Counted from the first letter of the stretch, positions 5,396-27,099 are shown. The stretch is 64,000 nt of DNA from Candidatus Eiseniibacteriota bacterium (GCA_031366795.1 JANLOX010000259.1:220-64219), one strand, 5' to 3'. Notes: generated from the sequence alone by a model not told the origin. A program made the numbers and translations.

Positions 5396-5424
5396 CGGGT
5401 CTTAAGCCGGGACGCGGAGGCGCG

Positions 5425-6168
5425 TTGTCCAGCGGTACACTGAGCCCTGAGGAACTGCGCCGGAGTGGAGACATCCCCCGGCATATCGCCATCATCATGG
5501 ACGGGAATGGGCGATGGGCCCGCTCCCGCGGTATTCAACGCCTGATGGGGCACCGCGCCGGCCGTGATGCCGTGCGCGACACGGTCCGCGGCTGCGTGGC
5601 ACTGGGTGTCGAGGTGGTGAGCCTGTACACGTTCTCAATCGAGAACTGGAACCGCCCCAAGCGCGAAGTCCAGGCGCTGATGACGATCCTCAAGGACACC
5701 CTGCGCGGCGAACGCGACGAACTGCACAGCAACAATGTGCGACTTCAAGTCATCGGTCATCCTGCCGACCTGCCCGAGTCCGTGCAGCGAGTGATCCGCG
5801 AGACCGAGGACTACCTGTCGGGCAATTCCGGTATGTTGTTGCTCGTGGCGCTCTCCTACAGCGGCCGCGCGGAGATCGTCGATGCGGTGCGCCGGATCCT
5901 CGAGGACCAGAAACATTCGCCGGTGCCGCCCGCGGCCGTCGATGAGGAGCTGGTCGCCAGCTACATGTACACGGCCGGCCTGCCCGATCCCGACCTGCTG
6001 ATCCGCACCAGCGGCGAGATGCGCATCTCGAACTTCCTGCTGTGGCAGCTCGCCTACACGGAACTGTGGATCACCGACACACTGTGGCCGGATTTCAGGA
6101 AGAAGCATCTCTACCGCGCGGTCGCCGACTACCAGACGCGTGACCGCCGCTTCGGGCGCGTGGATTGA
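5425..6168 (+). CDS. uppS: Undecaprenyl-diphosphate synthase (cis-isoprenyl transferase)
   Basis: PRHIAIIMDGNGRWA...SLYTFSIENWNRP...LIRTSGEMRISNFLLWQ signature of UppS. Confidence 0.9.
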   Translation: MSSGTLSPEELRRSGDIPRHIAIIMDGNGRWARSRGIQRLMGHRAGRDAVRDTVRGCVALGVEVVSLYTFSIENWNRPKREVQALMTILKDTLRGERDELHSNNVRLQVIGHPADLPESVQRVIRETEDYLSGNSGMLLLVALSYSGRAEIVDAVRRILEDQKHSPVPPAAVDEELVASYMYTAGLPDPDLLIRTSGEMRISNFLLWQLAYTELWITDTLWPDFRKKHLYRAVADYQTRDRRFGRVD

Positions 6169-9309: not shown

Positions 9310-9310
9310 C

Positions 9311-9796
9311 ATGCGGCTCGCGGCCAGCAAGTTGCTCGATGTCGCGGATGCGGTCGCGACGGTCGCGGCATGGCGCGCTCAGGGCTCGCGCGTCGTGCTC
9401 GCCAATGGGGTGTTCGACCTGCTGCATGTCGGGCATGTGCGCTATCTCGAAGATGCGCGTGCCCAGGGTGATCGTTTGATCGTTGCCATCAACGGGGATG
9501 TCGAGACGGCGCGCATGAAGGGCGCCGGGCGTCCGGTGCTGCCCGCGACCGAGCGCGCGGCGCTCGTTGCAGCATTGCGTTGTGTCGACGCCGTGGTGGT
9601 GTTCGATGAGCCCACCGCCGATGCAATCCTCGAACGCCTCGCGCCGAACGTGCACGCCAAGGGCACCGACTACCGCGTGGATTCCGTGCCTGAGCGCGCG
9701 ACCGCCGAGCGCACCGGTGTGGCGACCGTCATCACTGGCGATCCGAAACAACATTCCAGCCGCGAGCTGGTGGAGCGCATTCGTGAACGATTGTAG
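9311..9796 (+). CDS. hldC: D-glycero-beta-D-manno-heptose 1-phosphate adenylyltransferase (HldE domain II-like)
   Basis: VVLANGVFDLLHVGHVRYLEDAR...LIVAINGD cytidylyltransferase-like (HxGH) fold. Sits immediately after the kinase gene. Confidence 0.8.
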   Translation: MRLAASKLLDVADAVATVAAWRAQGSRVVLANGVFDLLHVGHVRYLEDARAQGDRLIVAINGDVETARMKGAGRPVLPATERAALVAALRCVDAVVVFDEPTADAILERLAPNVHAKGTDYRVDSVPERATAERTGVATVITGDPKQHSSRELVERIRERL

Positions 9797-9814
9797 CGGC
9801 TACGGTCCCCGCGG

Positions 9815-10822
9815 ATGAGCGGCGCCGTGCTGGCGATCCGGTTGCGTGCGCTGGGCGACGTGGTCCTGACCACGCCGGCATTGCGCGCGCTGCATCGTGG
9901 CGATTCCGCGGCGCCCATCGATGTGGTGACCGACCAGTCCTATGTCGGATTGCTGGAGGGGTTGCCGGGCATCGATCGCGTCATCGGCCTGCGACGTGGC
10001 GCGGGCGGCATGCGCGCGGTGCTCGGCGCCATCCGCAAACGCTCGTATGCCCGCGCCGTCGACTTCTACGGCAACCCGCGCAGCGCCCTGATGACCAAGG
10101 TGAGCGGGGCGAAGGATTCTTTCGGCTACGATCTGCGCGGCCGCGGGCGCGCCTATCGTCATCGCATCGCGCGCGACGTCCCGATGGTCGAGGGCCGGCG
10201 CGAATACGCGGCGGCCTCGCATGTGCGGTTGGCGGTCGCAGCGGGCGGGCAGGACGACGGACTTGCCGCGCACGTGTCGCTCGCGCCCCAGGCCGTGGCG
10301 CAGGCGTCGGCGCTGCTGCATGCGGCGGGAATCCGCGAGCCGGGCGCAACGCTGGGTTTGATCGCCGCGGGAACGTGGGCCACCAAGACGTGGCCCGCCT
10401 CACATGCGGCGTGGCTCGCGCGCGGTTTGCTCAAGGCAGGGCGCGAAGTCCTGCTGCTCGCCGGGCCGCATGAGGACCACGTGACACACGCGCTCACATC
10501 GCTCGCGCCGGGCATCGCGGTGTTGCCACCGTGCGATGTGCCCTCGCTCGCCGCGGTGATCGCGCGGCTCGCGGGAGTGGTGGGCACCGACAGCGGGCCG
10601 CGCCATCTCGCGGCGGCACTCGGGCGGCCGACGTTCGCGTGGTTCGGCCCCACGCATCCCGATAACTGGACCGCCCCTGATCCTTCGCAAGGCGTGTGGT
10701 GGACCCAGGCGCCGTGCCGTGGTTGCAACCGCACCGCCTGCCCGCACTGGATCTGTCTTCCCGAGTTCCATCCCGACCGCGCCTTCGCGCTGGTGCAGGA
10801 GCATTTCGCGCGTCATGCCTGA
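9815..10822 (+). CDS. ADP-heptose:LPS heptosyltransferase (glycosyltransferase family 9)
   Basis: LAIRLRALGDVVLTTPALRAL...TDSGPRHLAAALGRPTFAWFGPT is the GT9 (WaaC/WaaF-type) pattern. Confidence 0.8.
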   Translation: MSGAVLAIRLRALGDVVLTTPALRALHRGDSAAPIDVVTDQSYVGLLEGLPGIDRVIGLRRGAGGMRAVLGAIRKRSYARAVDFYGNPRSALMTKVSGAKDSFGYDLRGRGRAYRHRIARDVPMVEGRREYAAASHVRLAVAAGGQDDGLAAHVSLAPQAVAQASALLHAAGIREPGATLGLIAAGTWATKTWPASHAAWLARGLLKAGREVLLLAGPHEDHVTHALTSLAPGIAVLPPCDVPSLAAVIARLAGVVGTDSGPRHLAAALGRPTFAWFGPTHPDNWTAPDPSQGVWWTQAPCRGCNRTACPHWICLPEFHPDRAFALVQEHFARHA

Positions 10823-11585
10823 ACGACTGCCGGTCTCCGTACTGCTTCTGGCGCGCGACGAAGCCGTAGCGCTGGCGGTGTTGTTGCCGGCGCTCGCGTT
10901 CGCCGCGGAGTGTGTGGTCGTGGTCGATGCAGCCACCACCGACGACAGCGCAGCCGCGGCCGGGCGCCTGGGTGCGCGCGTGTTCACACGCGCCCTCGAG
11001 GGCTTTGGCGCCCAGCGCAGCTTCGCGCTCGAACAGTGCCGCGAGCCGTGGGTGTTGTGGATCGACGCGGATGAACGGTTGGACAGGGCCGGTGTGGAGA
11101 CGATTTGCGCGGCGGTGACGCGTGGCGACGCGGACGGCTTCCGCATCAAACGTCGCACCTGGTTTCTCGGCCGCCCCATCCGCTTCTGCGGCTGGCGCAA
11201 TGAACGCGTGTTGCGGGTGTTCCGCCGCGATCGCGCGCGCTTCGATGCCAACCTCGTGCATGAGGAAGTGCATGTCGAGGGCCACATCGCGGACCTCGAG
11301 GCGACACTCGAACACCTGAGCTACGAGTCGTGGGACGAGGCGCGCCGCAAGCTGCTGCAATACTCCGCAGCCAATGCGCAACGGCTGGCCGCTGAACAAC
11401 GCACCGTCTCATTGCTGGATGTAATCGCGCGCCCACCGTTGCGCTTCGTGCGCATGTACTTGATGCAACTGGGATTCCTCGACGGCGCACGCGGGGTATT
11501 GCTGTGCGGGCTGGCGGCCACACAGGTGTTCCTCAAATACGCCGGGCGCTGGGCCGCGAGCCGCGGCATTGGGCCAGGCGCGTGA
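10815..11585 (+). CDS. Glycosyltransferase family 2
   Basis: VSVLLLARDEA...VVVVDAATTDDSAA...WVLWIDADERL (DxD) GT-A motifs. ATG 10815 overlaps the GT9 stop by 8 bp. Confidence 0.75.
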   Translation: MPERLPVSVLLLARDEAVALAVLLPALAFAAECVVVVDAATTDDSAAAAGRLGARVFTRALEGFGAQRSFALEQCREPWVLWIDADERLDRAGVETICAAVTRGDADGFRIKRRTWFLGRPIRFCGWRNERVLRVFRRDRARFDANLVHEEVHVEGHIADLEATLEHLSYESWDEARRKLLQYSAANAQRLAAEQRTVSLLDVIARPPLRFVRMYLMQLGFLDGARGVLLCGLAATQVFLKYAGRWAASRGIGPGA

Positions 11586-12652
11586 GGATTGGCTTCTTCG
11601 GCGCCTGGGACGCCGGCTACCCGCGCAATCGGATCCTGCGCGCGGGACTTGTCGCGGCGGGAGCCGAGGTGGTGGAGCTGCGGGTGCGCGAGCGGCGTGT
11701 CGTGTTTCGCTACCCGCGGCTGATGATGGCCTACGCGCGTGCTCCACGATTGGATGCCCTGTTCGTTCCGGCGTTCCGCCACAAGGACATGCCGCTGGCG
11801 CGTTGGCTCGCCGGGCGGCTGCCTGTGGTGTTCGATCCGCTGGTGTCGCGCTGGGACACGCTGGTGGAAGACTGGGCGATCCATGCGACGGACTCGCTGC
11901 AGGCGAAGTGGAATCGCACCATCGACCGGTGGTCCCTGCGGAGCGCGCAGGCGGTGCTGTGCGACACATGGGCGCATGGACGGTTGTTCACGGAGCTCGG
12001 CGCGCGGCCGGATTCGCTGGTTCGCATTCCGGTGGGAGCAGAGCAGCGCTTCTTCGAACTGCCGGACCCCCAGGACTCCGCGATCGTTGAAGTGTTATAC
12101 GTGGGCGGCTTCCTGCCGTTGCACGGTGTGCCGACGTTGATCGAGGCGTTATCGGAGTTGCAGCGTGACGATGCCACGTTGCCCGCCTACCGCGTGCGGT
12201 TCGTGGGCCGTGGTATCCAGGTCGACGTGGCGCGACAGCAGGCCGAGCGCAGGGCGCTGCGCCATGTGGTGTTCGAGGGCCCCCGTCCTTACGCGGATTT
12301 GCCCGTGGTGATGGGCAGTTCGCACATTGTTCTCGGCGCCTTCGGCGCAAGTGCCAAGGCGGGCCGCGTGGTGCCGCACAAAGTGTGGCAGGGGCTCGCC
12401 TCGGGGCGCGCCGTGCTCACCGGTGATGGCGACGGAGTGCGCGAGTGGTTCACCGATGGTGTGGAGCTGCTGAGCGTGCCGCGGGACGACGGGCAGGCGC
12501 TGGTCGCAGCACTGGCACGCCTGATCCGCGACGCCGGCCTGCGGCGCCAACTGGGCAAGGCGGGACGCGCGCGTGCGCTGCGGATCGGAACGCCCGCACA
12601 GCTGGGGCGCGAGTTGCTCGAGGTGTTCGAGCGGGTCGCGGGGGCAGCATGA
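11582..12652 (+). CDS. Glycosyltransferase family 1 (GT4-like)
   Basis: N-terminal VRIGFFGAWDAGYPRN and a C-terminal GT-B region (...VVFEGPRPYADLP...VWQGLASGRAVLTGD). GTG 11582 overlaps the upstream stop (GTGA). Confidence 0.7.
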   Translation: MRIGFFGAWDAGYPRNRILRAGLVAAGAEVVELRVRERRVVFRYPRLMMAYARAPRLDALFVPAFRHKDMPLARWLAGRLPVVFDPLVSRWDTLVEDWAIHATDSLQAKWNRTIDRWSLRSAQAVLCDTWAHGRLFTELGARPDSLVRIPVGAEQRFFELPDPQDSAIVEVLYVGGFLPLHGVPTLIEALSELQRDDATLPAYRVRFVGRGIQVDVARQQAERRALRHVVFEGPRPYADLPVVMGSSHIVLGAFGASAKAGRVVPHKVWQGLASGRAVLTGDGDGVREWFTDGVELLSVPRDDGQALVAALARLIRDAGLRRQLGKAGRARALRIGTPAQLGRELLEVFERVAGAA

Positions 12653-13767
12653 AGATCGCGCACGTCGATACCGGCCGCGAATGGCGAGGGGGACAGGCGC
12701 AGGTGGCGCTGTTGCTCGAGGGTCTTCGAGAGCGCGGGCACGAGGTCATGCTTGCGGCCCCCGACGCGCCGCTGTCGCAACGCGCGCGCGAACGTGGCAT
12801 CGAGTGGCTGGAGCTGAGGACCGGAGGCGACCTCGATCTCGGCGCCGGGGGGCGCCTCGCGCGGCGACTCGAAGCGTGGCGACCGGAACTGCTGCATGCG
12901 CACACGGCGCGCGCCCACACCGTGTCGCGCTCGGCGGGGCGCCGGCTCGGCGTGCCGGTGATCGTGTCGCGGCGTGTGATCACGCCGGTCGCGCGTAACC
13001 CCTTCAGCCGCCGCAAGTATCGCAGCGGCATCGCGCGCTACCTGTGCATCAGCCGCGCGGTGATGGATGTCCTGCGGGAGGGCGGCGTCGAGGCGAAGCG
13101 TTTGGCGCTGGTGCCGAGCGCCGTGGATTGCGAGCGTCTCGCGCAGGTGCGAGCCTCGGTGAACGCGGGGCAGGACCGCGTGTCGTTGCGGAATCTGATC
13201 GGGGCGGCCGAGCACGACACGGTGTTCGGCACTGCCGGGTCGGTCACGCGCGACAAAGGCGTCGATGAGTTTGCCGCCGCCGCGGCGATGGTGCTGGCGC
13301 GGTATCCCAATATGTGGGCCGTGTGGATCGGTGAGGGCCGCGACCGCGCGCGTCTCGAGCGGATCGCTTCAGGCCTCGGCATCGGCGCCCGCCTGCGCGT
13401 GCTGGGATTCCGCGCGGACGCGCATGCCTGCATCGCGCAACTCGACGTGTTTGTCTCGGCATCGCAGCACGAGGGCCTTGGCACCGCGATACTCGAGGCG
13501 CAGGCGCTGGGCGTGCCGGTGATTGCGACGGATTCACGCGGCGTGCGCGATTCCATCGAGGACGGCGTCAATGGCCGCCTGGTCAGCAATCCTCGCGCGC
13601 TGGGTGTGAGTCTGGGCGACGCTCTGGGCGATCGCGCCACACTCGATGGCTGGCGCGATAAGGCGCTGCGTTCGGTGAGGGAGTTCTCGCCACGGACCAT
13701 GCTCGTTCTCACGCTCGCTGAATACATGAAGGTGCGGGCCGAAGCCTCAACCGCTGCAGGGGATTGA
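12649..13767 (+). CDS. Glycosyltransferase family 1 (GT4-like)
   Basis: MKIAHVDTGREWRGGQAQV...; C-terminal ...SQHEGLGTAILEAQALGVPVIATDSRGVRDSIEDGVNG matches the EX7E GT4 motif. ATGA overlap with the upstream gene. Confidence 0.8.
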   Translation: MKIAHVDTGREWRGGQAQVALLLEGLRERGHEVMLAAPDAPLSQRARERGIEWLELRTGGDLDLGAGGRLARRLEAWRPELLHAHTARAHTVSRSAGRRLGVPVIVSRRVITPVARNPFSRRKYRSGIARYLCISRAVMDVLREGGVEAKRLALVPSAVDCERLAQVRASVNAGQDRVSLRNLIGAAEHDTVFGTAGSVTRDKGVDEFAAAAAMVLARYPNMWAVWIGEGRDRARLERIASGLGIGARLRVLGFRADAHACIAQLDVFVSASQHEGLGTAILEAQALGVPVIATDSRGVRDSIEDGVNGRLVSNPRALGVSLGDALGDRATLDGWRDKALRSVREFSPRTMLVLTLAEYMKVRAEASTAAGD

Positions 13768-13926: not shown

Positions 13927-13959
13927 GCGCCCAACTTATTAGCAAACAAGGAGTTGTCC

Positions 13960-15342
13960 GTGATCTGGAACAACTGGAACCAAGCGCTTCCCGGCGTGCT
14001 GCTGCTGGGGCTGGTCATTTTCGTGCACGAGCTCGGCCATTTCCTCATGGCGAAATGGCGCGGCGTACGTGTCCTGCGCTTCTCGATGGGCTTCGGCCCC
14101 AAGGTGGTCGGCTTCACGCACGGTGAAACCGAGTACCAGTTGTCGTGGATTCCGCTGGGCGGCTATGTCCAGATGGCGGGCGACGCGCCGGGCGAAGACG
14201 GCACGATGCCGGGCGGCCGCGAAGAATTCCTGTCCCACCCGTGGTTCGGACGCGTGCTGATCGCGGTCGCGGGCCCCGCTGCCAATCTGGTCACCGCGTT
14301 CGTGCTGCTCGCCGTCGTGGCGTTCATCGGGGTGAGCTATCCCGATTACCCGAATGTCGTCGGCGCCGCGCCGGACAGTAGCGTGGCGTACCAACTCGGA
14401 GTGCGCGGCGGCGATCATCTCGTGAGCGTCAACAGCAAACCGACCACCAGCTGGATCGCCGTGTTCGTGCGCAATTCGGCGACGTCGAAGCAGCAGGCGA
14501 TCGACGTGGGCGTGGAGCGCAACGGCGAGCACGTCACGCTCACCATCCCGTCGCGCATGCGCGAGCCGTTCTTCTCGAGCCTCAAGCGGCCCGCCGACGA
14601 ACCGCTGATCGGCGCCGTGGCGACGGGAATGCCGGCATACAAGGCCGGCCTCAAGGAAGGCGATCGCATTGTCGCCGTGGCGGGGCACCCCATCACGACG
14701 TGGGACGAGTTGCCGTTGGCCTTCCATGGCCAGGTCGATAAGCAGGTGCCGATCACGGTGCAGCGCGAGGGCCGTCAGTTCGAGGTCTCGGTCAAGCCAA
14801 TGGACCCCGAGGGCAAGGGTAAGGAGAACGGCCGGATCGGCATCGAGCCGCCGCGCCGTGGGACCTATATCGAGCGCCACGGTCTGCTGGAGTCGGTGGA
14901 TCTCGGCGCGCGCGCGACGGTGGGGCTGGTGAGTTCCGTCTACGCCGGCATGTGGCTCACGGTCAGCCGGCCGCTCTACTACCGCGAGTACGTCGGCGGA
15001 CCGCTGTTCATCGCCCAGGCGGCGCAGCAGCAGGCGAAGCGCGGGTGGGATGCCTACCTGCAGTTCATCGCCATGATCAACGTGGCCATCATGGCGTTCA
15101 ACCTGCTCCCGCTGCCGGTGCTCGATGGTGGTCACATCCTGCTCGCGGTGATTGAAGCGATCCGGCGCCAGGCGATTTCCGCGCGCTCGTACCTGCGCTT
15201 CCAGAAGGCGGGCCTGGCGTTGCTCGGCACCTTGTTGGTGTTGATCCTCGCGAACGATCCGCTGCGGCTGGTGCAGCGTCATCGCGCCATCGACCAGCAA
15301 TCCACGCCTGTTGAGCGGCCGGCTGCTCCGGTCAGCCCATAG
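13960..15342 (+). CDS. rseP: RIP metalloprotease RseP (site-2 protease, M50 family)
   Basis: HELGHFLMAK (HExxH in TM1), PDZ-containing middle and LDGGHIL C-terminal motif. GTG 13960 lies 6 nt after AAGGAG (13948-13953). Confidence 0.9.
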   Translation: MIWNNWNQALPGVLLLGLVIFVHELGHFLMAKWRGVRVLRFSMGFGPKVVGFTHGETEYQLSWIPLGGYVQMAGDAPGEDGTMPGGREEFLSHPWFGRVLIAVAGPAANLVTAFVLLAVVAFIGVSYPDYPNVVGAAPDSSVAYQLGVRGGDHLVSVNSKPTTSWIAVFVRNSATSKQQAIDVGVERNGEHVTLTIPSRMREPFFSSLKRPADEPLIGAVATGMPAYKAGLKEGDRIVAVAGHPITTWDELPLAFHGQVDKQVPITVQREGRQFEVSVKPMDPEGKGKENGRIGIEPPRRGTYIERHGLLESVDLGARATVGLVSSVYAGMWLTVSRPLYYREYVGGPLFIAQAAQQQAKRGWDAYLQFIAMINVAIMAFNLLPLPVLDGGHILLAVIEAIRRQAISARSYLRFQKAGLALLGTLLVLILANDPLRLVQRHRAIDQQSTPVERPAAPVSP

Positions 15343-15373: not shown

Positions 15374-17452
15374 GTGTCGGCACCATGGAAGGAGCCTGCC
15401 GCTGTTTCGCCAGCCCCACCTTGCAATCGTGGCGCCTCGCGCGCCCGGCGATGGCTTGCGGCGTGCCTCGCGATGGCCGTGACGGCGGTGATTGGAGTGG
15501 GGCTTGCGCCGGTACCTGCGCGGGCCCAGTTCGATTTCCCCGCCCAGCTCAAGACGATCGAGCGGGTGCGCTTTGAGGGCCGCCACCACGTTTCGAAGAA
15601 GGAGCTCTCCGCGGTGCTCAAGACGCGGAACCCTTCGATCTGGCCGTGGCACCATCCGGTGTTGATGCGGCTCGACTTCGTTCGGGCCGACACCTCGGCG
15701 CTCGAGCAGGTGTGCTGGCAGCGTGGCTATCTCGACGCCGTCGTGAACTCCCGCCTCGATCCGGGCACGCGGCCCGAAGGCGTGGTGGTCACGTACGTCA
15801 TCCACGAAGGCCCCCGCTACCACGTCGGCAGCGTGAAAGTATCGGGACTCGATTTGATTCCGGAGGCGCCGATCCGCCGGCATCTGTTTGCCCGCTCCGG
15901 GAAGCCGTACAACCCGTTCTACCTGTATGCCGACACCGCCAGTATCGCGGCCGCGTGCCGTGAGCACGGCTTCCTGCCCGGCGTCTCGGCGCTCGCCGAG
16001 CGGCGCGGCGCGCAAGGGCAGGCGGGCAGCGCGGAACACGACACGACGTTGTACGACATCGAATATTTCGTGGAGTTGGGACGCAAGTACAAGTTCGGTG
16101 AAGTGAACCTGTCGTCCCCGGGGCAGACCCACGTGAAGCCGCGGCTGGTGCTGCGCGAGATCGTGTTCAAGCCGGGCGAGACGTACAAGGCGTCCGAGGT
16201 GCAGGAGTCGATCGAGCAGATTTACGGCACCAGCCTGTTCAACCTGGTCCAGATGACGCCGCTGCCGGACTCGACGAACGGCGTTGTCGAGTTCGATCTC
16301 CACATCCGCGAACGCCGGCCGCGCTGGCTGGCCGCCGGCGTGGGCAGCGGCACGGCGGAGCGTTTCCGCTTCACGGGCGAGTGGGGCCATCGCAACCTCA
16401 ACGCCCGTGGCTTGCAGGCCGTGGTGTCCTCCAAGCTCGCGCTCGACGGCAATGCGCGCTTCCTGTTGGCGCGCGGCGAGGCGACGCTGTACGACCCGTG
16501 GCTGTTGCGCCAACGGCGCCGCGGCTCGGCGACGTTTTTCATCGAGGGCGTGCATGATCGCGCGAACCCGGACTTCTTCCTCAGGCAGGACAGCCGGGGC
16601 GTGAACTTCCAGATCCGCCGCGACTATCACCGATTCACCCGGCTGGTCGTCACGCAGGCAAACAGCTACGTGCACCAGCGCTTCGATCTGCTCGCTGCGG
16701 ACTCGGCTCGCACCGAGGCGCTGCGCGACTCCATTCCGCCGCATTACTCCACCCACCGGCTGCAGTTGGCGGTCGAGCGGGATGACCGCGACGACCTGAT
16801 CAACCCGTTCCGCGGCACCTACACGAATTTCACCGGGGACATCGCGGGCGGGCCCTTGCAGGGCAGCAGCAGTTTCACCCGCGTCTCCGCCACGACATCG
16901 TGGTACGTGACCGTGCACGGCAACTCCGTGCTGGCGTTCAGGGTGCGGGCCGGATCCATCGATCCGTTCGGCAAGGCGAATGTGTTCACGCCCGTCACGA
17001 TCGACTCGCGCGTGCAGCGTGTGCCGATCGAGGATCGCTTTCGCTTAGGGGGAGTGAACTCGATTCGCGGCTATACCGAGAATGCCTTGCCCGGCTCGGG
17101 CGGGCTCGCCATGCTGCTCGCCAATGTCGAATTGCGTGTGCCGCTGGTGGGGCCGTTCGGGGCGGAATTCTTCGGCGACGCCGGCAACGTCTGGGCGCGT
17201 CCTTCATTCATGAACGTGGGAAGCTTTAAGCTCCGGCTTTCGGATGACTACTATGACTTGAACGCGGTGCGCTACGTGGCGGGTATGGGGCTGCGCCTGA
17301 ACCTGCCGTTCGGTCCGCTGCGCTTCGATGTGAGTTGGTCGTCGCAGCCCGACCGTGGCTCGCGCGAGCCCGGAGTTCCGCCGGACTCGAAGCACCAGGA
17401 CCTGCGCGACCGCCGCATCCATCCACAGATTGCCATTGGCACCACCTTCTAG
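15374..17452 (+). CDS. bamA: Outer membrane protein assembly factor BamA (POTRA domains plus Omp85 barrel)
   Basis: Signal peptide RRWLAACLAMAVTAVIGVGLAPVPARAQ. POTRA-like repeats (IERVRFEGRHHVSKKEL...). C-terminal barrel with the SIRGY variant and a terminal ...QIAIGTTF beta-signal. GTG 15374 lies 6 nt after GGAGGA. Directly downstream of rseP, as in many diderms. Confidence 0.85.
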   Translation: MSAPWKEPAAVSPAPPCNRGASRARRWLAACLAMAVTAVIGVGLAPVPARAQFDFPAQLKTIERVRFEGRHHVSKKELSAVLKTRNPSIWPWHHPVLMRLDFVRADTSALEQVCWQRGYLDAVVNSRLDPGTRPEGVVVTYVIHEGPRYHVGSVKVSGLDLIPEAPIRRHLFARSGKPYNPFYLYADTASIAAACREHGFLPGVSALAERRGAQGQAGSAEHDTTLYDIEYFVELGRKYKFGEVNLSSPGQTHVKPRLVLREIVFKPGETYKASEVQESIEQIYGTSLFNLVQMTPLPDSTNGVVEFDLHIRERRPRWLAAGVGSGTAERFRFTGEWGHRNLNARGLQAVVSSKLALDGNARFLLARGEATLYDPWLLRQRRRGSATFFIEGVHDRANPDFFLRQDSRGVNFQIRRDYHRFTRLVVTQANSYVHQRFDLLAADSARTEALRDSIPPHYSTHRLQLAVERDDRDDLINPFRGTYTNFTGDIAGGPLQGSSSFTRVSATTSWYVTVHGNSVLAFRVRAGSIDPFGKANVFTPVTIDSRVQRVPIEDRFRLGGVNSIRGYTENALPGSGGLAMLLANVELRVPLVGPFGAEFFGDAGNVWARPSFMNVGSFKLRLSDDYYDLNAVRYVAGMGLRLNLPFGPLRFDVSWSSQPDRGSREPGVPPDSKHQDLRDRRIHPQIAIGTTF

Positions 17453-17462
17453 GCGCCCACCG

Positions 17463-20400
17463 ATGACCGACCCGACACCTCCCGAATCGAACGAGCCGCC
17501 CAAGGGACCGGAACCGCTCGGTCTGGTGGAGGAGCTGCGCCATGAGATCGAGGAGGTCGTCGAACACGTTCCCGAGAAGGTGCGCTGGACGGTGCGTAAG
17601 CTCGTGCTGATCAGCATCGCCGGTGTGGTCGGGCTCATCGTGCTGGCGATCGTGTCTGTGGCGTTGTACTACGCCAACCGCACCGAGCTCGTAGCGCACG
17701 AGTTGACGCTGTTCCTCAATCACACGCTCGACACCCGCAGCAATGTGCGCATCGAATTCTCCGACATTCGCGGCAATCCATTCCAGCGCCTCCGGCTGGT
17801 GCAGCCTCGCGTGGTGTTCCGTGACAGCGGTCGTCCGCTGCTCGAGGCGCCCTGGATCGAGATTGGTTACTCGCCGATGAGCCTGCTCAAGCGCGACGGC
17901 AAGACGGTGGACGTGGCCGTCGAGTCACCGGCGATCCACTTTGAGCGCGGCGCGGACGGAGCACTGCTGCTGCCTACATGGAAGACGGCGGGCAGCGCCG
18001 GCAGCGCGCGGACGGTTGACATGAAATTCCGGCTGCACCAGGGCACCGTCGATTTGCCCATACAGGAGGGCAGGATCGAGGGACTCGATATCGATGCTTC
18101 GCTGGCGACGGGAGTGGCGAGCCGTGCGGTGATCCGTTCGATGAAGTGGCGCAAGGGTCCTTTCGATTCGCGGCAACTCGAATTCACGGGAGAGGTCTCC
18201 GCCGGTGACAGCGTGCAGGTGCACGTGGAGCGTTTGACCACGGCCGGTTTCGCGCTGAGCGGCGATGGCGGCTGGCGCAAGGGGGAGAAGGCCAAGTGGG
18301 TCCACGCCGCGGTGTCCCGGTTGAGCTGGAAGTACCTTGCGGGCATCAGCGGCAACAACACGTTCGATGTGCCGGGCAATGCGGTGGCCACGATTGATGC
18401 GCGAGGGGACTCGATCTGGCACGGCCAGTTCCGCGCGCAGGTCAACTGGAATGGGCTGGATGCCGCGGGCAACGGAGCGTTCGAGTGGAAGGGCCAGCGC
18501 ATGAGCGTCGAGTCGCTGGCCGCGCAGTCGAAGGCGGGAGACCTCAAGGGACACTTCAGCTGGTCGCGGTTGGGTTGGGATGTCGGCGGGGACGTCAGCG
18601 GTGGCCAGCCGTCGTTGTGGGACGCGATCGGCATTCCCGGTTGGCCCGCGGGTAAGCTGAATGGGCGCTTCGAGTATGCGGTCAGCACACGCAACCGTAT
18701 TTCGAACGGCACACTCACGGCGCAACTGACGCCCTCGGAACTGGCGGGATGGCGCGCCGACTCGACGACCGTGACCGCCGACCTGCCCTCGCGCGGCACG
18801 CGGGTCTTCGATGTGCACTCGTTGCGGCGCGGGGGACACTTCGAGTTGCACGGTGAAACGCTCGAGCACGGCTGGGACGGCACTTACAAGGTGGCGGCAC
18901 TGCCGCTTGACGAGTGGCCGGATGGCCGCGCGAGCGGTATTCGCGGCCTGCTCGACGCGGGTGAGGGGACGGTCCATGTGACCGACGGCAAGATGTCGGT
19001 GACGGGCAATCTCATGGGACGGGGCACCGATTGGCTGGGTCTGCACACGGCGCGCTGGAAACTCTCGGACGTCAACGGACTGTTGTTGCCGGCGCCTGAC
19101 CTGGTGGCGCGCGCCGGGATCGAGGACGTGATGTTCCTCGGGCTGCACTTCGACAGCGCGGCGAGTCCCATTCATCTCGGTGACCGCAATCTCGACCTGC
19201 AGTCCATGACCGCCCAGGCCGGCGACACCCTGCTCGCATTCGCGGGGCGCGCGGATTGGAACGCGGCGGCGTGGCAACTGGAGATGAGCCGCGCGCAGCT
19301 GACGAGCCAGCAGTTTCACTGGACCGCGGATCCGCCCGTGCAGTTCGTCGGCGACCCCCAGGGCGTCACCTTCCGCCGTTTGGTCGCGCACGATGGCGAT
19401 GCCTCGATGCAGATCAGCGGCCGCTGGGGAGGCCCCGGTGGTCGCTACGACTGGCGTGCCGAAGCGCTGCGGCTCGATCTCGCGCGGCTGGGGTTGCCGG
19501 TCGAGTGGGGCCTCAAGGGCACGAGCGATGCGACGTTGCGGGTCGAAGGCGTTTACGGTGATCCGCGCTGGACCTTCGAGGGACGCGCCTCGCAGCCCGC
19601 GTTCGGCGGGCACCATGGTGACTCGCTGGATCTCGCGCTCACCGGCGCGATGTCTCGCGTCGGCATCGACCGCATGAAGTTCATGATCGGCGGTGGCGAG
19701 CTCGCGGCCCACGGCCGCGTGGAGCGGATGACCAGGGCATGGCCCGATTCGCTGACCGGTACCGCCGTGCAACGCTGGTTGCTCACTTCGGCGGCGTGGT
19801 CGGGCGGCATCGATGCGAATGGCTTCCCGATCGAACGCGTGACGGGCCTGTTTCCCGCGAGCAATGGTTGGGCAGGAAGACTCGAAGGGCATGTGGCGGT
19901 GGGCGGGAACCCCGCGCGGCCTGAACTCGATGTGAAGGCGGTGGTGAAGCCACTGACGTGGCACGACTTCAACATGGAAAAGATCGAAGCCGAGGGGAAG
20001 TACGCGGATGAGCGGCTCGCCGTCACGCGGCTCAAGGCGACGCGCCTGCAACTCGAGTCGACGGCCGAGGGAACGATCCCGATCCGGATCGCGTTCGACC
20101 GTCCGTGGGTATTGCTCGACAAGCCGATGGACGCCACCCTGCACGTGCGCCAGGGAGATCTTCGCCTGCTGCCGCGTCTGGTCCCGCAACTGGCCGCGGC
20201 ATCGGGGAGTCTCGAGGCCGACGCCACAATTCATGGAACGCCGCTCAAACCCGATCTGGATGGCCGCGGCCGAATCAGTGGCGGTTCGTTGCGGCTGGCC
20301 GGTCGCGACGAATTGCTCGACCACATGTCGGGGTCCTTCCGGCTCAACCAATCCACGCTTACGCTCGATTCGCTGACGGCCCGCGAGGGCGAGGCGGGGC

Positions 20401-21521
20401 GGCTGCGCGCGAGTGGCAGCGTGAAGCTCGACCGGCTGGTGCCGAGTGGCTACCACATCGATCTCGTCTTGAGCGACTTCACCGCGTCCGACCCGGGGCT
20501 GTATGCCGCGCAATTCGACGGCAACTTCCAGGTGACGGATGGCCCCCACGTGCGCGGCCAGTGGCTGCCACTCGTCACCGGCTCGGCGGTCATCAACCGG
20601 GCAGTGGTCTTGATCGATTTCGCGAACCAATCCGAGAGCGCGCAGCTGGCGTCGTCGAACCCGCCGCTGTACTGGGTGTACCGCATCGACCTGAGTGCCA
20701 AGAGCAACCTGCACTGGCAGCCGCCCGATGGGGACATCGAATTCAGCGCAGACCTGACCGCCGAGCAGACGCCGACGGAGTTGCGGCTGTTCGGGGAGAT
20801 GCAGTCGTTGCGCGGCACCTACTACTTCCTGAGCAACCGCTTCACGGTCAACAACGCGACCCTGACGTTCGACAATGTCTCGGGCCTGAATCCCACGCTC
20901 GACGCGAGCGCCACCACGCGCGTCGTCCCGCTGGCCACCGCCGCGGACATCAGTGCCAACGCCAGCAAACCCGTGGCCCACGAGGTGACGGTCACCATTA
21001 CAGGCAGATCGAGGGAGCCGGTGATCGCGTTCGAGAGCAGTCCTTCCGATTGGGATGAAAACGAAATCCTGCGCGAATTGACGGTGCTGCGGTTCGTGAA
21101 GGGCGGCGTCGCCCAGGGGGATCCGTTCGACAATTACCTGACACGCGCCTTGAACCGCACGCTGTCCGCCGAAATGTCGCGGGCCTTCAAGGGATACGTG
21201 AGCGACTGGACCTTCGAACGCGACCAGGGTGGACTTGCCAGGGGCGAGGGCGAAGTAACGGTGAGCGCCGCCTCGCAGGTGACGCGCAACCTGCTGCTCC
21301 GTTATAGCCAGCGGGTGCCAGGGCTCGGCCGCGATGTCATCGCGGCGCCGACTGTGGGAACGACCCCGTTCGAGCGGGATTTCCAGGCGGAGTACCGGTT
21401 GAACCGCCTGTTCCTCATCAGTTCGGAGCTGCGCCAGCGGCGCAGCCTCACGGGAACTGGGGCAAATCCCTCCTCGGCGCCGGACTTCAACGTCGACTTG
21501 AAGGCTCGTTGGGAATACTGA
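17463..21521 (+). CDS. tamB: Translocation and assembly module protein TamB (AsmA-like, DUF490 C-terminus)
   Basis: 1353 aa. N-terminal signal-anchor (LVLISIAGVVGLIVLAIVSVALYY), a long beta-rich body and a DUF490-like C-terminus (...LLLRYSQRV...EYRLNRLFLISSEL...). 10 bp after the bamA stop. Confidence 0.8.
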   Translation: MTDPTPPESNEPPKGPEPLGLVEELRHEIEEVVEHVPEKVRWTVRKLVLISIAGVVGLIVLAIVSVALYYANRTELVAHELTLFLNHTLDTRSNVRIEFSDIRGNPFQRLRLVQPRVVFRDSGRPLLEAPWIEIGYSPMSLLKRDGKTVDVAVESPAIHFERGADGALLLPTWKTAGSAGSARTVDMKFRLHQGTVDLPIQEGRIEGLDIDASLATGVASRAVIRSMKWRKGPFDSRQLEFTGEVSAGDSVQVHVERLTTAGFALSGDGGWRKGEKAKWVHAAVSRLSWKYLAGISGNNTFDVPGNAVATIDARGDSIWHGQFRAQVNWNGLDAAGNGAFEWKGQRMSVESLAAQSKAGDLKGHFSWSRLGWDVGGDVSGGQPSLWDAIGIPGWPAGKLNGRFEYAVSTRNRISNGTLTAQLTPSELAGWRADSTTVTADLPSRGTRVFDVHSLRRGGHFELHGETLEHGWDGTYKVAALPLDEWPDGRASGIRGLLDAGEGTVHVTDGKMSVTGNLMGRGTDWLGLHTARWKLSDVNGLLLPAPDLVARAGIEDVMFLGLHFDSAASPIHLGDRNLDLQSMTAQAGDTLLAFAGRADWNAAAWQLEMSRAQLTSQQFHWTADPPVQFVGDPQGVTFRRLVAHDGDASMQISGRWGGPGGRYDWRAEALRLDLARLGLPVEWGLKGTSDATLRVEGVYGDPRWTFEGRASQPAFGGHHGDSLDLALTGAMSRVGIDRMKFMIGGGELAAHGRVERMTRAWPDSLTGTAVQRWLLTSAAWSGGIDANGFPIERVTGLFPASNGWAGRLEGHVAVGGNPARPELDVKAVVKPLTWHDFNMEKIEAEGKYADERLAVTRLKATRLQLESTAEGTIPIRIAFDRPWVLLDKPMDATLHVRQGDLRLLPRLVPQLAAASGSLEADATIHGTPLKPDLDGRGRISGGSLRLAGRDELLDHMSGSFRLNQSTLTLDSLTAREGEAGRLRASGSVKLDRLVPSGYHIDLVLSDFTASDPGLYAAQFDGNFQVTDGPHVRGQWLPLVTGSAVINRAVVLIDFANQSESAQLASSNPPLYWVYRIDLSAKSNLHWQPPDGDIEFSADLTAEQTPTELRLFGEMQSLRGTYYFLSNRFTVNNATLTFDNVSGLNPTLDASATTRVVPLATAADISANASKPVAHEVTVTITGRSREPVIAFESSPSDWDENEILRELTVLRFVKGGVAQGDPFDNYLTRALNRTLSAEMSRAFKGYVSDWTFERDQGGLARGEGEVTVSAASQVTRNLLLRYSQRVPGLGRDVIAAPTVGTTPFERDFQAEYRLNRLFLISSELRQRRSLTGTGANPSSAPDFNVDLKARWEY

Positions 21522-21632
21522 CGCATCTCAAAGCGCTGCGGGGAACCGGGAATGGGGCCGAAGGTGTACATTAGTGGGGGGCGTATCGTGCTGGAGTCGG
21601 CGCCGGGTGGTCGATTCGGAAAGGATCGCTGT

Positions 21633-24600
21633 ATGTCTCGTTTCACCCTTGGCCTCCTGGCGGGGCTGATGCTGTGCCTCGGGGTCATCCCCGCGGGTGC
21701 CCAGACCTTTGGCCAGAACAAGGTCCAGTACGCCCGCCACCAATGGCGCTCGATCGGGTCCGACCACTTCGAGGTGTACTTCTACGACGGGCTCGACAGC
21801 CTCGCGATGCGAGTGCTCGACCTGGCCGAGAAGACCAACGCCGTCATGACCGCGCGGCTCGGGCACCAGCTCGGGCGCCGCGTCCCGATCATCCTGTACG
21901 GTTCCCACAACGATTTCGCCCAGACCAACGTCACTCCCGAACTGATCGACGCCGGCACGGGCGGGTTCACCGAAGTGCTGCGCAACCGTGTCGTGCTGCC
22001 CTTCACCGGTTCCTATGAGGACCTGCGGCATGTGGTGGTGCATGAACTGACTCACGCCTACATGTTCGACATGTTGTATGCCGGCTCCGCGGCTTCGCTG
22101 ATTGCGCGGCAAGGCTTCTACTCGGTGCCGTTGTGGTTCGCCGAGGGCATGGCCGAGTACTTCTCGCTCGGCGTGGAGTCGAATGCGGAAGTGTTCCTGC
22201 GCGACGGCACGGTCGAGGGCTACCTGCCGCCGCTCGAGTATTCCGGCGGCTACATCGTCTACAAGCAGGGACAGTCCGCCATCAGCTACCTGGTCGATCG
22301 CTACGGCGAGGACCGGCTGCGTGACATCCTCAAGCGCTCGCGCCAGATGCACAATTTCGACCGCGCCTTCCAGAAGAGCATGGGGCAGCCTGTCTCGAAG
22401 TTCGACGAGGGCTGGCGCACCTGGCTGCGCAAGCGCTACTGGCCGGCCGTCGCGAGCAAGAGCTCGCCCGAGGAATTCGCGCGCCGCCTGACTGACCATC
22501 GCCACGACGAGAGCAACCTCAACACGGCGCCGTCGATTTCGCCGCAGGGCGACCGCATCGCGTTCTTCTCTGACCGCCGCCAGTACACCGACGTGTATGT
22601 CATGTCGGCATTGGACGGCAAGATCATCCGGCGCGTGATTCGCGGCGAGCGCAACGTCCAGTTCGAGAGCATTCCGTCCTTCCGCAGCACGATGACCTGG
22701 TCGCCCGACGGTTCCCGCCTGGCGCTCACCGCAAAGAGCGGCGGCCACGATGTGCTCTATGTGCTCGATGCCCACTCGGGCAGGGTCGAGCGCCGTGTCG
22801 AGATGCCGTGCGACGCGTTGTTCGACCCGGCGTGGTCCCCGGTCTCGGATTCACTCGTCGTGGCGGGCGTCACGGCCGGCCGCTCGGACCTGTGGCTGGT
22901 GGAGCTCAAGACCGGGCACCGCCAGCGGCTGACCGACGATGCGTATGATGAGAAGGAGCCGGCGTGGTCACCCGACGGCTCGCGAATCGTGTTCTCGACC
23001 GATCGCGGCACGCCGGTCGTCCTGCACCCGAAGCGCCATGAAGGCGGCTTCGGCGAGTACGGCCTCTACGAGATGACCGTGGCGGGTGGCGAGGTACGCC
23101 GGGTGCTCGACACGGCGGGGGATGACCACAGCCCGCAGTGGTCGCCCGACGGCAAGCTGCTGGGGTTCATCACCGACTACAGCGGCACGCCGAACATCCA
23201 CGTGTTCGATCCCGCGGACTCCTCGGTGACTCAGCTCACTGATGTGCTCGGGGGAGTGCAGGGCATGTCGTGGTCGCGGCAGAACGACCGCCTGGTGTTC
23301 TCCGCCTACAACCAGGGCGGCTTCGATATCTTCGGCGTGCGTGAGCCGCTCGCCGTCAATGGCGTACTGGCGCGATTGCGTCGCGATGCTCCGTCCGCCG
23401 TTCGCTCGGTGAGCGCGATGTTCGTGGCGCCGAAAGATTCCACGGTTGCGCCGCCGCAATTCGGGGCGCTCGCCGGTGCATGGCCCGATTCGATCGCCGC
23501 GAGTTCGGACAAGGACCGGCGTTCCGAACATCACGATGGCGCCTCGCGCGACACCCTGCGCCTCGACCGCATGGACGAGGACAACCGGCCGGGTTGGATG
23601 GCGGGACCACATCCGTTCCCCGCGTTGCCGGACAGCGTGACGCCACTGGCGACGCGCATCCCACTGCATGATGAAGGGGGGCCGTTCGCGCTCCCTGACT
23701 CGGTGCTGGGCCAGAAGGCTCGCGCCTACCGGCCGCACCTGGCCCCGGACTACGGTGGCGCGGGCTTCTACGCCGCCACGGGCTACGGTTTCGTGGGCAG
23801 CACGCAGTTCGTGTTCTCGGATTTCCTCGGCGACCATAGCCTGTATGTCGCGACGGACGTGTTCAGTAATTCGATTTCCGAGACCAATGCGCTCGCCATT
23901 TACCGTTACCTGCCGCGCCGCTGGGACTTTGGCGCCGGGCTGTTCCACTTCAAGAACTACTTCAACTCGCAGGTGTCCACGCTGGGTGAGTCGTTCGGTT
24001 CATCGCGGTTGTTTTCGGAGCGCAACTTTGGCGGCTTGGTCTCGGCCTCATATCCGTTCGACCGCTTCCATCGCGCGGAGTTCAACTTCACGCAGATGTT
24101 CCTCGAGCGCCAGTTCTTCGTGCGCGATGTGTTCGGGGACGTGGCGGCGGCAAACCACGAGTACCGCTCGGTATCGTCGCCATCGGTATCGCTGGTGTCG
24201 GACAATTCACTGTTCGGCTACTACGGACCGGTCAACGGGCAGCGCTGGAACCTGACCTATGGGCCATCGTTCGCGTGGTTCCAGAATGGACTGGCGTATA
24301 ACACGGTGACGTTCGATGGCCGGCGCTACTGGGACCTCACGCGCGGCTACACCTTCGCGACGCGCGTCCTCGCCGGCGCCAGTGACGGCCGGAATCCGCA
24401 GACCTTCAGGATCGGCGGGTTCTCGACGCTGCGCGGCTTCCCTGACTTCTCCCTCCTCGGCTCGCGCGTGTCGCTCGTATCCGCCGAATTGCGCTACCCG
24501 TTCATCCAGCAACTGGGGCTGGTGGGTCCGCTGCCGGTGGGATTGTTCAACCTGCGCGGCGTCATATTCGGCGACGTGGGTGCGATCTGGAGCGGGGGCG

Positions 24601-24791
24601 AGAAGATCCGCTTCAGCGAAAATGGCCGCCTGACGGATCCGCTCAAAGGTCCAGGCGTCGGGATGAGCTTCGGCACGGGACTGCGCACATCGCTGTTGTT
24701 CCTGATCGTGAAGCTCGATGTGGCGTGGCGCACGGATCTTCAGCAGGTAAGTCGTCCACGCTGGCACTTTAGCCTGGGCCCCGAATTCTAG
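21633..24791 (+). CDS. Omp85-family outer-membrane beta-barrel fused to an N-terminal gluzincin-like peptidase domain and a six-bladed TolB/PD40-type propeller (novel architecture)
   Basis: Signal peptide MSRFTLGLLAGLMLCLGVIPAGAQ. HExxH (VVHELTHAYM, nt 22041-22055) plus WFAEGMAEYF Glu motif. Six PD40-like repeats: ISPQGDRIAF, WSPDGSRLAL, WSPVSDSLVV, WSPDGSRIVF, WSPDGKLLGF, WSRQNDRLVF. C-terminal ~350 aa carries the Omp85 barrel hallmarks (GGFSTLRGF, FGDVGAIW, GMSFGTGLRTSLLFLIVKLDVAW, terminal WHFSLGPEF). ATG is preceded by AAAGGA. Confidence 0.8.
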   Translation: MSRFTLGLLAGLMLCLGVIPAGAQTFGQNKVQYARHQWRSIGSDHFEVYFYDGLDSLAMRVLDLAEKTNAVMTARLGHQLGRRVPIILYGSHNDFAQTNVTPELIDAGTGGFTEVLRNRVVLPFTGSYEDLRHVVVHELTHAYMFDMLYAGSAASLIARQGFYSVPLWFAEGMAEYFSLGVESNAEVFLRDGTVEGYLPPLEYSGGYIVYKQGQSAISYLVDRYGEDRLRDILKRSRQMHNFDRAFQKSMGQPVSKFDEGWRTWLRKRYWPAVASKSSPEEFARRLTDHRHDESNLNTAPSISPQGDRIAFFSDRRQYTDVYVMSALDGKIIRRVIRGERNVQFESIPSFRSTMTWSPDGSRLALTAKSGGHDVLYVLDAHSGRVERRVEMPCDALFDPAWSPVSDSLVVAGVTAGRSDLWLVELKTGHRQRLTDDAYDEKEPAWSPDGSRIVFSTDRGTPVVLHPKRHEGGFGEYGLYEMTVAGGEVRRVLDTAGDDHSPQWSPDGKLLGFITDYSGTPNIHVFDPADSSVTQLTDVLGGVQGMSWSRQNDRLVFSAYNQGGFDIFGVREPLAVNGVLARLRRDAPSAVRSVSAMFVAPKDSTVAPPQFGALAGAWPDSIAASSDKDRRSEHHDGASRDTLRLDRMDEDNRPGWMAGPHPFPALPDSVTPLATRIPLHDEGGPFALPDSVLGQKARAYRPHLAPDYGGAGFYAATGYGFVGSTQFVFSDFLGDHSLYVATDVFSNSISETNALAIYRYLPRRWDFGAGLFHFKNYFNSQVSTLGESFGSSRLFSERNFGGLVSASYPFDRFHRAEFNFTQMFLERQFFVRDVFGDVAAANHEYRSVSSPSVSLVSDNSLFGYYGPVNGQRWNLTYGPSFAWFQNGLAYNTVTFDGRRYWDLTRGYTFATRVLAGASDGRNPQTFRIGGFSTLRGFPDFSLLGSRVSLVSAELRYPFIQQLGLVGPLPVGLFNLRGVIFGDVGAIWSGGEKIRFSENGRLTDPLKGPGVGMSFGTGLRTSLLFLIVKLDVAWRTDLQQVSRPRWHFSLGPEF

Positions 24792-24885: not shown

Positions 24886-27088
<2,203 letters not shown>

Positions 27089-27099
<11 letters not shown>

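Follow-up and report, generated by a model that had tools for sequence, protein, structure and literature searches.

A WD40-Omp85 protein with a predicted zinc-metallopeptidase head is encoded downstream of bamA and tamB in a Candidatus Eiseniibacteriota genome

The DNA analysed here is a stretch of 64,000 nucleotides (nt) from a Candidatus Eiseniibacteriota bacterium (GCA_031366795.1, JANLOX010000259.1:220-64219), hereafter called the window, and all positions are counted from its first letter. Between positions 15374 and 24791 it encodes the outer-membrane insertase BamA, the AsmA-like protein TamB and a fusion protein in which a predicted peptidase, a β-propeller and an Omp85-type barrel are joined. 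A TolB-like propeller N-terminal to the barrel and the lack of any POTRA domain place the fusion protein in the WD40-Omp85 subfamily of the Omp85/TpsB superfamily. According to the accessible part of the paper by Heinz and Lithgow (2014), this subfamily was defined without an assigned function, and its propeller is structurally nearest to TolB (PMC4104836). New here is the cross-phylum linkage of the family to tamB, and to an hldE-like gene pair, which is genuine and conserved. No mention of a linkage between WD40-Omp85 and tamB was found in the accessible parts of the literature consulted on the family and on the module for translocation and assembly (TAM).

Domain architecture of the fusion protein

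The fusion gene and the parts of its product, all on the + strand, are the following (aa, amino acids).

21633-24791, + strand: fusion gene, 1052 aa, ATG start followed by a signal peptide
21633-21704, + strand: Sec signal peptide, aa 1-24, read from the translation (cleavage after ...IPAGAQ and before TFGQNKVQY), no lipobox Cys
21705-22472, + strand: predicted MA-clan zinc metallopeptidase, about aa 38-275 (Peptidase_MA_2, PF13485)
22041-22055 and 22134-22160, + strand: metallopeptidase motifs HELTH (aa 137-141) and WFAEGMAEY (with E171)
22479-23408, + strand: six-bladed TolB-like (PD40) β-propeller, about aa 297-570 (PD40 1.3e-22)
23439-23732, + strand: disordered linker of about 100 aa (about aa 603-700), A/P/D-rich, from AlphaFold2 (AF2)
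23742-24791, + strand: 16-strand Omp85-type barrel, aa 704-1049 (AF2, Foldseek and profile)
24429-24440 and 24567-24581, + strand: barrel motifs L6 LRGF (aa 933-936) and FGDVG (aa 979-983)

Two features support the ATG at 21633 as the start: some 8 nt upstream stands a Shine-Dalgarno-like AAGGA motif, which recurs in relatives, and a signal peptide follows directly. At the predicted cleavage site stands the sequence AQxFGxNKVQY (window 21699-21731, fusion aa 23-33), to which AF2 assigns low confidence. Residues F26, G27, N29 and K30 are near-invariant family-wide, down to 28% identity.

The Peptidase_MA_2 model scored 36.9 bits on the whole fusion protein (gathering cut-off 32.4) and the isolated domain gave 1e-10, while AF2 placed an alpha/beta plus helical fold at aa 38-275. 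In an alignment of 51 diverse family sequences, with identities of 28-59%, residues H137, E138, H141 and E171 were at least 90% conserved and W168, G172 and E175 were invariant. Conservation of the HExxH...E motifs at such identities argues for an active enzyme, that is, for a metallopeptidase that is conserved and apparently catalytic. Searched as a single sequence against the PDB, the peptidase domain returned nothing meaningful. When the full-length model was submitted to Foldseek, propeller and barrel matches dominated.

The propeller was recognized by the NCBIfam model propeller_TolB (1.5e-39) and superimposed on TolB in Foldseek with an E-value of 7e-12 and a root-mean-square deviation of 2.4-4.1 A over 271-281 columns. 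A profile of the family searched against PDB sequences matched TolB (2.8e-29), Fusobacterium nucleatum BamA (1.1e-17) and Escherichia coli BamA (about 1e-12). In the AF2 models, the propeller and the peptidase pack side by side and the flexible linker of about 100 aa joins both to the barrel. The predicted local distance difference test (pLDDT) score of this linker is below 50 at aa 617-686 in both models, its sequence is not conserved among homologues, and Pfam gave no match to it at E-values up to 10.

No POTRA domain was found in the fusion protein by Pfam, even at E-values up to 10 on the C-terminal 419 aa, or in the AF2 models. The barrel itself was modelled with 16 strands at a pLDDT of about 85-95, and the top 50 PDB matches in Foldseek were all BamA barrels (E 3.3e-11, prob 1.0). 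Pfam alone gave a weak match to the Omp85 part (ShlB, E 0.012), and only Omp85_fam (35.5 bits) and BamA (27.4 bits) matched the barrel among NCBIfam models at E<=1e-3. A jackhmmer search seeded with BamA matched the C-terminal region in 81 of the 84 loci sampled; the three that were missed (L033, L081 and L014-like truncations) stop before or within the barrel. Across diverse family alignments R934 and G935 never vary, conservation reaches at least 90% at F979, D981 and G983, and the C-terminal residue of the protein is Phe. On the AF2, Foldseek, profile and jackhmmer results, together with the RGF and FxDxG motifs, the barrel belongs to the Omp85 superfamily. A protease/propeller arm of periplasmic type on an Omp85 protein had been proposed in an initial annotation of this DNA, and these domains were borne out by Pfam, NCBIfam, AF2 and Foldseek.

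Size, spread and inheritance of the family

The fusion protein has 5912 homologues, and when 1.84 billion cluster representatives were searched exhaustively with HMMER, 1712 50%-identity clusters matched at E<=1e-30. Many of the best 150 of these 1712 are proteins of about 900-1130 aa with 31-60% identity to the query. For several of the best 150 the alignment spans the full query, and for many others it is broken into two or three stretches of similar total length, a pattern consistent with the same three-part layout. Like the members described in 2014, the proteins combine an Omp85-type barrel with an N-terminal TolB-like propeller and lack POTRA domains. The accessible part of that account has the WD40 propeller alone (PMC4104836), whereas in the family sampled here a peptidase head precedes the propeller and a linker follows it.

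A scan of one genome per species, with an 18-sequence alignment as the query, gave at least 363 loci, of which 80 were kept. These 80 come from Eiseniibacteriota, Krumholzibacteriota, UBP1, Latescibacterota, Bacteroidota, Ignavibacteria, Balneolales/Rhodothermales, Calditrichota, KSB1, Fibrobacterota and Gemmatimonadota. The family looks vertically inherited and housekeeping-like across the Fibrobacterota-Chlorobiota-Bacteroidota (FCB) superphylum.

Divergent paralogues of the fusion gene (about 35% identity) were also seen away from tamB in metagenome-assembled genomes (MAGs) labelled Eisenbacteria (L013:2849-5704, L013:9551-13015 and L019:9488-13102). The two copies in L013 lie 4 kb apart and belong to separate major branches of the tree. 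Another locus (L074, JBOICE010000420.1) comes from a MAG labelled Pseudomonas sp.; its fusion gene clusters with those of Longimicrobiales (Gemmatimonadota), and it is probably mis-binned.

The architecture also bears on whether the protein could be a self-exporting surface protease similar to PlpD (type Vd secretion), in which the barrel would translocate the peptidase-propeller and the linker would thread the pore. The disordered linker of about 100 aa between passenger and barrel fits such a scheme, and PlpD, in the accessible part of the 2014 classification, sets a precedent in which the domain N-terminal to an Omp85 barrel is enzymatic and not a POTRA (PMC4104836). The passenger of PlpD, a patatin-Omp85 protein, is an exported lipase; that of the fusion protein would be a folded propeller plus peptidase of about 570 aa, which is bulky, and the nearest propeller is that of the periplasmic TolB. 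Furthermore, no POTRA stands between passenger and barrel. PlpD has one POTRA. Since the family also behaves as a vertically inherited housekeeping gene and not as a variable virulence-type factor, self-export is very unlikely.

Linkage of the fusion gene to tamB

The genes that surround the fusion gene, and the hldE-like pair further upstream, are the following.

8152-9306, + strand: PfkB-family sugar kinase (Pfam PfkB 2.1e-33)
9242-9793, + strand: cytidylyltransferase-like gene (Pfam CTP_transf_like 9.6e-16)
13954-15342, + strand: rseP, site-2 protease with M50 and PDZ domains (Pfam Peptidase_M50 1.7e-57, PDZ_6 6.5e-16)
15374-17452, + strand: bamA, Omp85 insertase with POTRA (Pfam Omp85 8.3e-41, POTRA 3.8e-18)
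17463-21521, + strand: tamB, AsmA-like, inner-membrane anchored and periplasm-spanning (PF04357 1.9e-33, aa 970-1326)
21522-21632, + strand: tamB-fusion intergenic gap of 111 nt, between the tamB stop and the fusion ATG
24886-27099, + strand: pcrA (Pfam UvrD-helicase 1.7e-86)

The coordinates first assigned to rseP, bamA, tamB and the fusion gene, and the position of pcrA after them, all hold in the list of open reading frames (ORFs) and in the sequence itself, and Pfam supports the gene names; the gaps between the five genes are 31, 10, 111 and 94 nt in order. The PfkB kinase and the cytidylyltransferase are, as judged from their domains, a split hldE-like pair. The product of 17463-21521 has an N-terminal signal anchor (LVLISIAGVVGLIVLAIVSVALYY, with a transmembrane helix at about aa 47-70), a C-terminal DUF490 domain (PF04357, 116.7 bits against a cut-off of 22.4) and a C-terminal strand like that of an outer-membrane protein (OMP), ending in ...DLKARWEY, which is similar to an OMP β-signal. 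The proteobacterial TamB equivalog NF047952 gave 48 bits against a cut-off of 825, a low score that is expected because the phylum is distant.

The neighbourhood of the fusion gene was surveyed by iterated profile searches in 84 loci, namely the 80 from the genome scan and four from close homologues. Relatives within Eiseniibacteriota (60-94% identity) are collinear over 23 kb, with the order glycosyltransferase (GT)-GT-rseP-bamA-tamB-fusion-pcrA-gatCAB-purD-purE onwards, and adjacency within this phylum therefore says little. In the wider survey, tamB lies directly upstream of the fusion gene in all 11 loci of the Eiseniibacteriota/Krumholzibacteriota/UBP1 clade, with a gap of 83-196 nt, and a Krumholzibacteriia locus retains rseP-bamA-tamB-fusion-pcrA. 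In 12 Bacteroidota/Ignavibacteria/Balneolales loci, a TamB-like gene of about 1500 aa is found 2.1-2.3 kb upstream with one gene between (L023, L027, L030, L034, L041, L043, L047, L048, L059, L068, L077 and L081). The gene between encodes RNase R, a cytoplasmic RNA exonuclease (RNB 1e-111 to 1e-115), lies at about 7.4-10.0 kb in each of these loci, and its ORF abuts those of its neighbours. This 700-aa gene had been considered as a candidate TamL2 and was rejected on its Pfam assignment. A plain phmmer search with the window TamB recovered only close relatives and, weakly, two Bacteroidota loci; it was iterated jackhmmer that brought out the 12 loci, and homology between the two TamB groups extends over their full length (hhalign 99.8%, E 2.8e-30).

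Overall, tamB is upstream of the fusion gene in 23/84 loci, and in 20/57 when the count is restricted to loci whose upstream flank is 7 kb or longer. None of the 20 Gemmatimonadota loci has tamB at the fusion locus; instead, rpsF, rplI and rsfS flank the fusion gene to one side, and the opposite flank holds a SPOR-domain gene, smc and a gene for 3-deoxy-D-arabino-heptulosonate 7-phosphate (DAHP) synthase. Calditrichia, Latescibacterota, Fibrobacteraceae and the divergent Eisenbacteria-labelled paralogues are likewise without tamB nearby. Conservation of the gene order, which had been proposed as a check by comparative synteny, thus held as tamB linkage in several phyla and failed in Gemmatimonadota and these other lineages. 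A conserved protein of about 520 aa is encoded 3' of the fusion gene in Gemmatimonadota (L038:12955-14607 and 22 other loci); a SPOR domain forms its C-terminal part (1.5e-8), a BamB-like PQQ_2 match to it is weak (2e-4), and the smc and DAHP synthase genes come next.

As a control, 22 other genes of the window were searched against the Bacteroidota-type loci, and only tamB and the hldE-like pair recur there. Six Bacteroidota/Ignavibacteria loci have the order pfkB-CTP-tamB-rnr-fusion, with the pair directly upstream of tamB. In a neighbour-joining tree, both tamB-linked groups fall in one major branch with unlinked lineages between them, a topology that would fit either an ancient tamB linkage with losses or two independent gains.

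The fusion gene is adjacent to tamB on the same strand, downstream of a gap that carries its own ribosome-binding site, and pcrA is equally close. No terminator-like sequence and no sigma70-like promoter consensus was found in the 111-nt gap, where an element of either kind, named in the initial annotation as what could separate the two genes, had been looked for. The gap RNA has no unusual structure (fold z-score +0.8), and alignment of the gaps from 11 loci revealed no conserved element except the ribosome-binding site. TAnnnT '-10-like' hexamers recur in the gaps; they were rejected as a promoter, since about 0.7 per gap is expected by chance at this base composition.

These observations have to be weighed against the absence of any functional link, in which case the fusion protein would act apart from TamB and BamA, for instance by scavenging peptides or in a role related to Tol-Pal or peptidoglycan, and its place after tamB would be an inherited order in a collinear housekeeping region. 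The collinearity of the 23 kb across Eiseniibacteriota points that way, as do the co-directionality of the entire 64-kb window, the resemblance of the fusion-pcrA gap (94 nt) to the tamB-fusion gap, which is no tighter, the conservation of the unrelated rnr between tamB and the fusion gene elsewhere, and the unrelated housekeeping neighbours of the fusion gene in most lineages. However, inertia alone is hard to square with a linkage kept across several phyla, and the control singled out tamB and the hldE-like pair in distant Bacteroidota-type loci. The Omp85 barrel with intact RGF and FxDxG motifs also points to outer-membrane biogenesis. A complete lack of functional connection is therefore considered unlikely.

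Relationship to BamA-TamB, TamA-TamB and TamL

The best reading of bamA is that it is the housekeeping bamA gene, since it sits in the classical rpsB...dxr-rseP-bamA block. Since relatives are called at 635-665 aa, the position of its GTG start (15374) is uncertain by tens of codons. The product has a signal peptide (...AVIGVGLAPVPARAQ), the L6 motif IRGY (564-567) and FGDAG (about 606-610). Among NCBIfam models, the BamA model TIGR03303 matches it best, with 205.6 bits (cut-off 297) over profile positions 151-721; a match that begins at position 151 suggests that this BamA has fewer than five POTRA domains, whereas E. coli BamA has five. In a Krumholzibacteriia locus (L017:3971-5963), bamA appears as two overlapping ORFs (3971-4867 and 4560-5963), through a frameshift or an assembly error.

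The gap between bamA and tamB is 10 nt in the window and is conserved at 0-10 nt in relatives. BamA-TamB pairing and operons are widespread and regarded as the ancestral arrangement (PMC4494059, PMC5582053), in agreement with the initial annotation, which had placed tamB beside bamA in several phyla; the bamA-tamB genes of the window are such an ancestral, widespread pair. A BamA-TamB complex has been described in Borrelia (PMC5582053, PMC13382580). In Borrelia burgdorferi the BB0795/BB0794 genes encode this hybrid of the β-barrel assembly machinery (BAM) and TAM (PMC5582053, PMC13382580; survey in PMC4494059), and the window resembles that system in that bamA adjoins tamB, no tamA is visible nearby and bamA follows rseP canonically. 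It differs in the order, which is bamA then tamB, followed by an Omp85 protein encoded by a third gene. BamA, rather than the fusion protein, is the more likely primary partner of TamB here.

The fusion protein had been proposed as the TamA equivalent of this organism. It is not a member of the TamA family: the TamA equivalog NF047950 was not among its NCBIfam matches at E<=1e-3. Nor did the TamL model NF052279 match the fusion protein of the window, and a Bacteroidota homologue reached 35 bits against a cut-off of 400. What stands of the proposal is the Omp85 barrel and the conserved association with tamB; the lack of POTRA domains, the missing HMM (hidden Markov model) matches and the tighter coupling of bamA to tamB speak against it. 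The likeness to the TamA-TamB system of E. coli lies in an Omp85 barrel gene beside tamB and in a TamB with its anchor, DUF490 and OMP-like C-terminus. Three POTRA domains contact TamB in E. coli TamA (PMC12800296), whereas the fusion protein has a protease-propeller arm in their place, and its gene comes after tamB at a distance of 111 nt. In Proteobacteria, tamA precedes tamB.

The cryo-EM structure of TamAB, which confirms the three POTRA domains that the initial annotation gave for E. coli TamA, shows the last strand of TamB paired with strand β1 of the TamA barrel in a hybrid barrel (PMC12800296). Because of this pairing, a barrel alone could in principle dock TamB. The fusion protein would then be the outer-membrane docking partner of TamB, with the protease/propeller arm replacing the POTRA domains, and the C-terminal strands of TamB would augment its strand β1 to form a TAM-like trans-envelope machine. 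Such a role would suit a true Omp85 barrel whose RGF and FxDxG motifs are intact, a gene directly 3' of tamB with neither a terminator or promoter consensus nor unusual RNA structure in the gap, a tamB linkage that two distinct sub-clades of the family tree show, at identities as low as about 30%, and the use of just strand β1 for the membrane-embedded contact of the hybrid barrel (PMC12800296). However, the POTRA domains of TamA make all three periplasmic interfaces with TamB, and deletion of POTRA2 is lethal (PMC12800296), and the fusion protein has no POTRA and matches neither the TamA nor the TamL HMM. BamA is encoded only 10 nt upstream of tamB, whereas the tamB-fusion gap is always 83-196 nt and the fusion gene has its own ribosome-binding site. 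Linkage to tamB is missing in all 20 Gemmatimonadota loci. Moreover, in Bacteroidota, the phylum with the tamB-rnr-fusion order, it is TamL that pulls TamB down (PMC12045153). A TamA-like docking role for the fusion protein is consequently doubtful.

TamL is an alternative Omp85 protein of FCB-group bacteria (Bacteroidota/Chlorobi) that is tied functionally to TamB, as had been noted at the outset; in Bacteroidota it co-purifies with TamB and no other OMP was significantly enriched, and it was reported outside the operon of the main tamB (PMC12045153). TamL is a lipoprotein with three POTRA domains, whereas the fusion protein has a signal peptide of the SPI (signal peptidase I) type with no lipobox Cys and no POTRA. 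A more specific idea is that in FCB-group phyla WD40-Omp85 proteins offer a second, POTRA-less docking site at which TamB strands would augment the barrel, which we regard as rather improbable. That an active, propeller-gated metalloprotease arm would there couple the delivery of lipids or OMPs to proteolytic quality control is a conjecture of similarly low standing, and there is only a small chance that the tamB-(rnr)-fusion linkage, which occurs across at least six phylum-level lineages, is the genomic trace of such a partnership.

Proposed role of the fusion protein

The reading we prefer, whose whole mechanism we would give about an even chance of being right, is that the fusion protein is an outer-membrane-anchored periplasmic protease that works in envelope biogenesis, separate from the docking of TamB on BamA. 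The N-terminal helix of TamB would hold it in the inner membrane; TamB would bridge the envelope and, as in Borrelia, dock its C-terminal β-strands into the barrel of the neighbouring BamA. A separate Omp85 factor, the fusion protein would be anchored in the outer membrane, with its protease-propeller arm hanging in the periplasm on the flexible linker of about 100 aa. This arm may degrade or trim unfolded or mis-assembled envelope proteins, with the propeller as a substrate filter that would limit access to the active site. In other propeller-gated peptidases, the propeller does limit access to the active site.

The role would thus be one of quality control or processing in outer-membrane biogenesis, following the logic of BepA at the BAM complex. 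BepA is an M48 zinc protease of E. coli with a tetratricopeptide repeat (TPR) domain that acts at the BAM complex in OMP quality control. Both would be periplasmic HExxH metalloproteases on a repeat-domain scaffold; BepA belongs to another peptidase family, has TPRs and not a propeller, and is a soluble partner, not fused to a barrel. The comparison is offered as an analogy for the proposed mechanism and homology is not claimed. The lasting linkage of the fusion gene to tamB and to genes for the heptose of lipopolysaccharide (LPS) would reflect co-regulation in envelope biogenesis, for which an obligatory TamA-like partnership is not required.

Several points weigh against an envelope protease of this kind. 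The quality-control role comes by analogy only, and the periplasmic topology of the N-terminal module, as opposed to a surface one, is assumed from the norm of the Omp85 family. No functional study of WD40-Omp85 members was found in the literature, just the 2014 classification and a passing mention. The fusion gene stands among unrelated housekeeping genes in 37/57 long-flank loci, for example in Gemmatimonadota, and RNase R separates tamB from it in the Bacteroidota-type loci. Since rnr is conserved between the two, conserved neighbours need not be functional partners, and the neighbourhood alone is a weak guide to the function of the fusion protein.

Genomic context of the window

The locus is a conserved ribosomal/envelope housekeeping block (rpsB...dxr...rseP-bamA) in a Candidatus Eiseniibacteriota genome, and homologues of the fusion protein bear names from MAGs of Candidatus Eisenbacteria (Eiseniibacteriota). 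The upstream order is maf, rplM, rpsI, rpsB, tsf, pyrH, frr, uppS, cdsA and dxr, followed by the hldE-like pair, a GT9 heptosyltransferase, a GT2, two GT4 and then rseP-bamA (Pfam). The LPS-core-type genes (window 8152-13767) interrupt the classical block between dxr and rseP. In line with the initial annotation, which had found no skp, lpxD or fabZ in the module, no OmpH/Skp, LpxD or FabZ match was obtained among the ORFs of the 64 kb supported by G+C content at third codon positions (GC3).

The G+C content of the window is about 67%. The genes are real, with a GC3 of 0.83-0.87 in all called frames. Of the approximately 55 genes that GC3 supports, essentially all lie on the + strand. The GC skew is above zero in 31/32 2-kb bins, and the cumulative skew climbs near-monotonically. 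With nearly all genes on the + strand and a skew that is positive almost throughout, the window is probably the leading strand of one replichore with an extreme gene-strand bias. The initial annotation had described bamA, tamB and the fusion gene as a co-directional module; they do share a strand, but this carries no weight, because practically every gene of the window lies on the + strand and the GC skew is positive.

Further downstream, a Bat/aerotolerance-like operon occupies 37644-45545, with genes for a MoxR AAA ATPase, DUF58, a DUF4129-like protein, two VWA proteins and BatD, and a PAP2 phosphatase gene comes after it. Three + strand ORFs (47090-47572, 53765-54601 and 62212-63630) are without a Pfam family at E<=0.01. 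The first of them passed the GC3 filter; the last overlaps other candidate ORFs and may not be real.

Significance

For this window, the outcome is mostly a clean annotation, with a normal rseP-bamA-tamB block and one WD40-Omp85 member. What is added is the peptidase head, the tether-plus-barrel anatomy and the cross-phylum linkage to tamB and the hldE-like pair. A conserved, apparently catalytic zinc-protease head on a WD40-Omp85 protein would give a testable hypothesis of outer-membrane homeostasis outside Proteobacteria, to which the linkage of tamB and LPS-heptose genes across several phyla lends a second support. The partners of TamB in these phyla are still being worked out, with BamA in spirochaetes and TamL in Bacteroidota, and in this setting the WD40-Omp85 family may be a useful lead rather than a new TAM machine.

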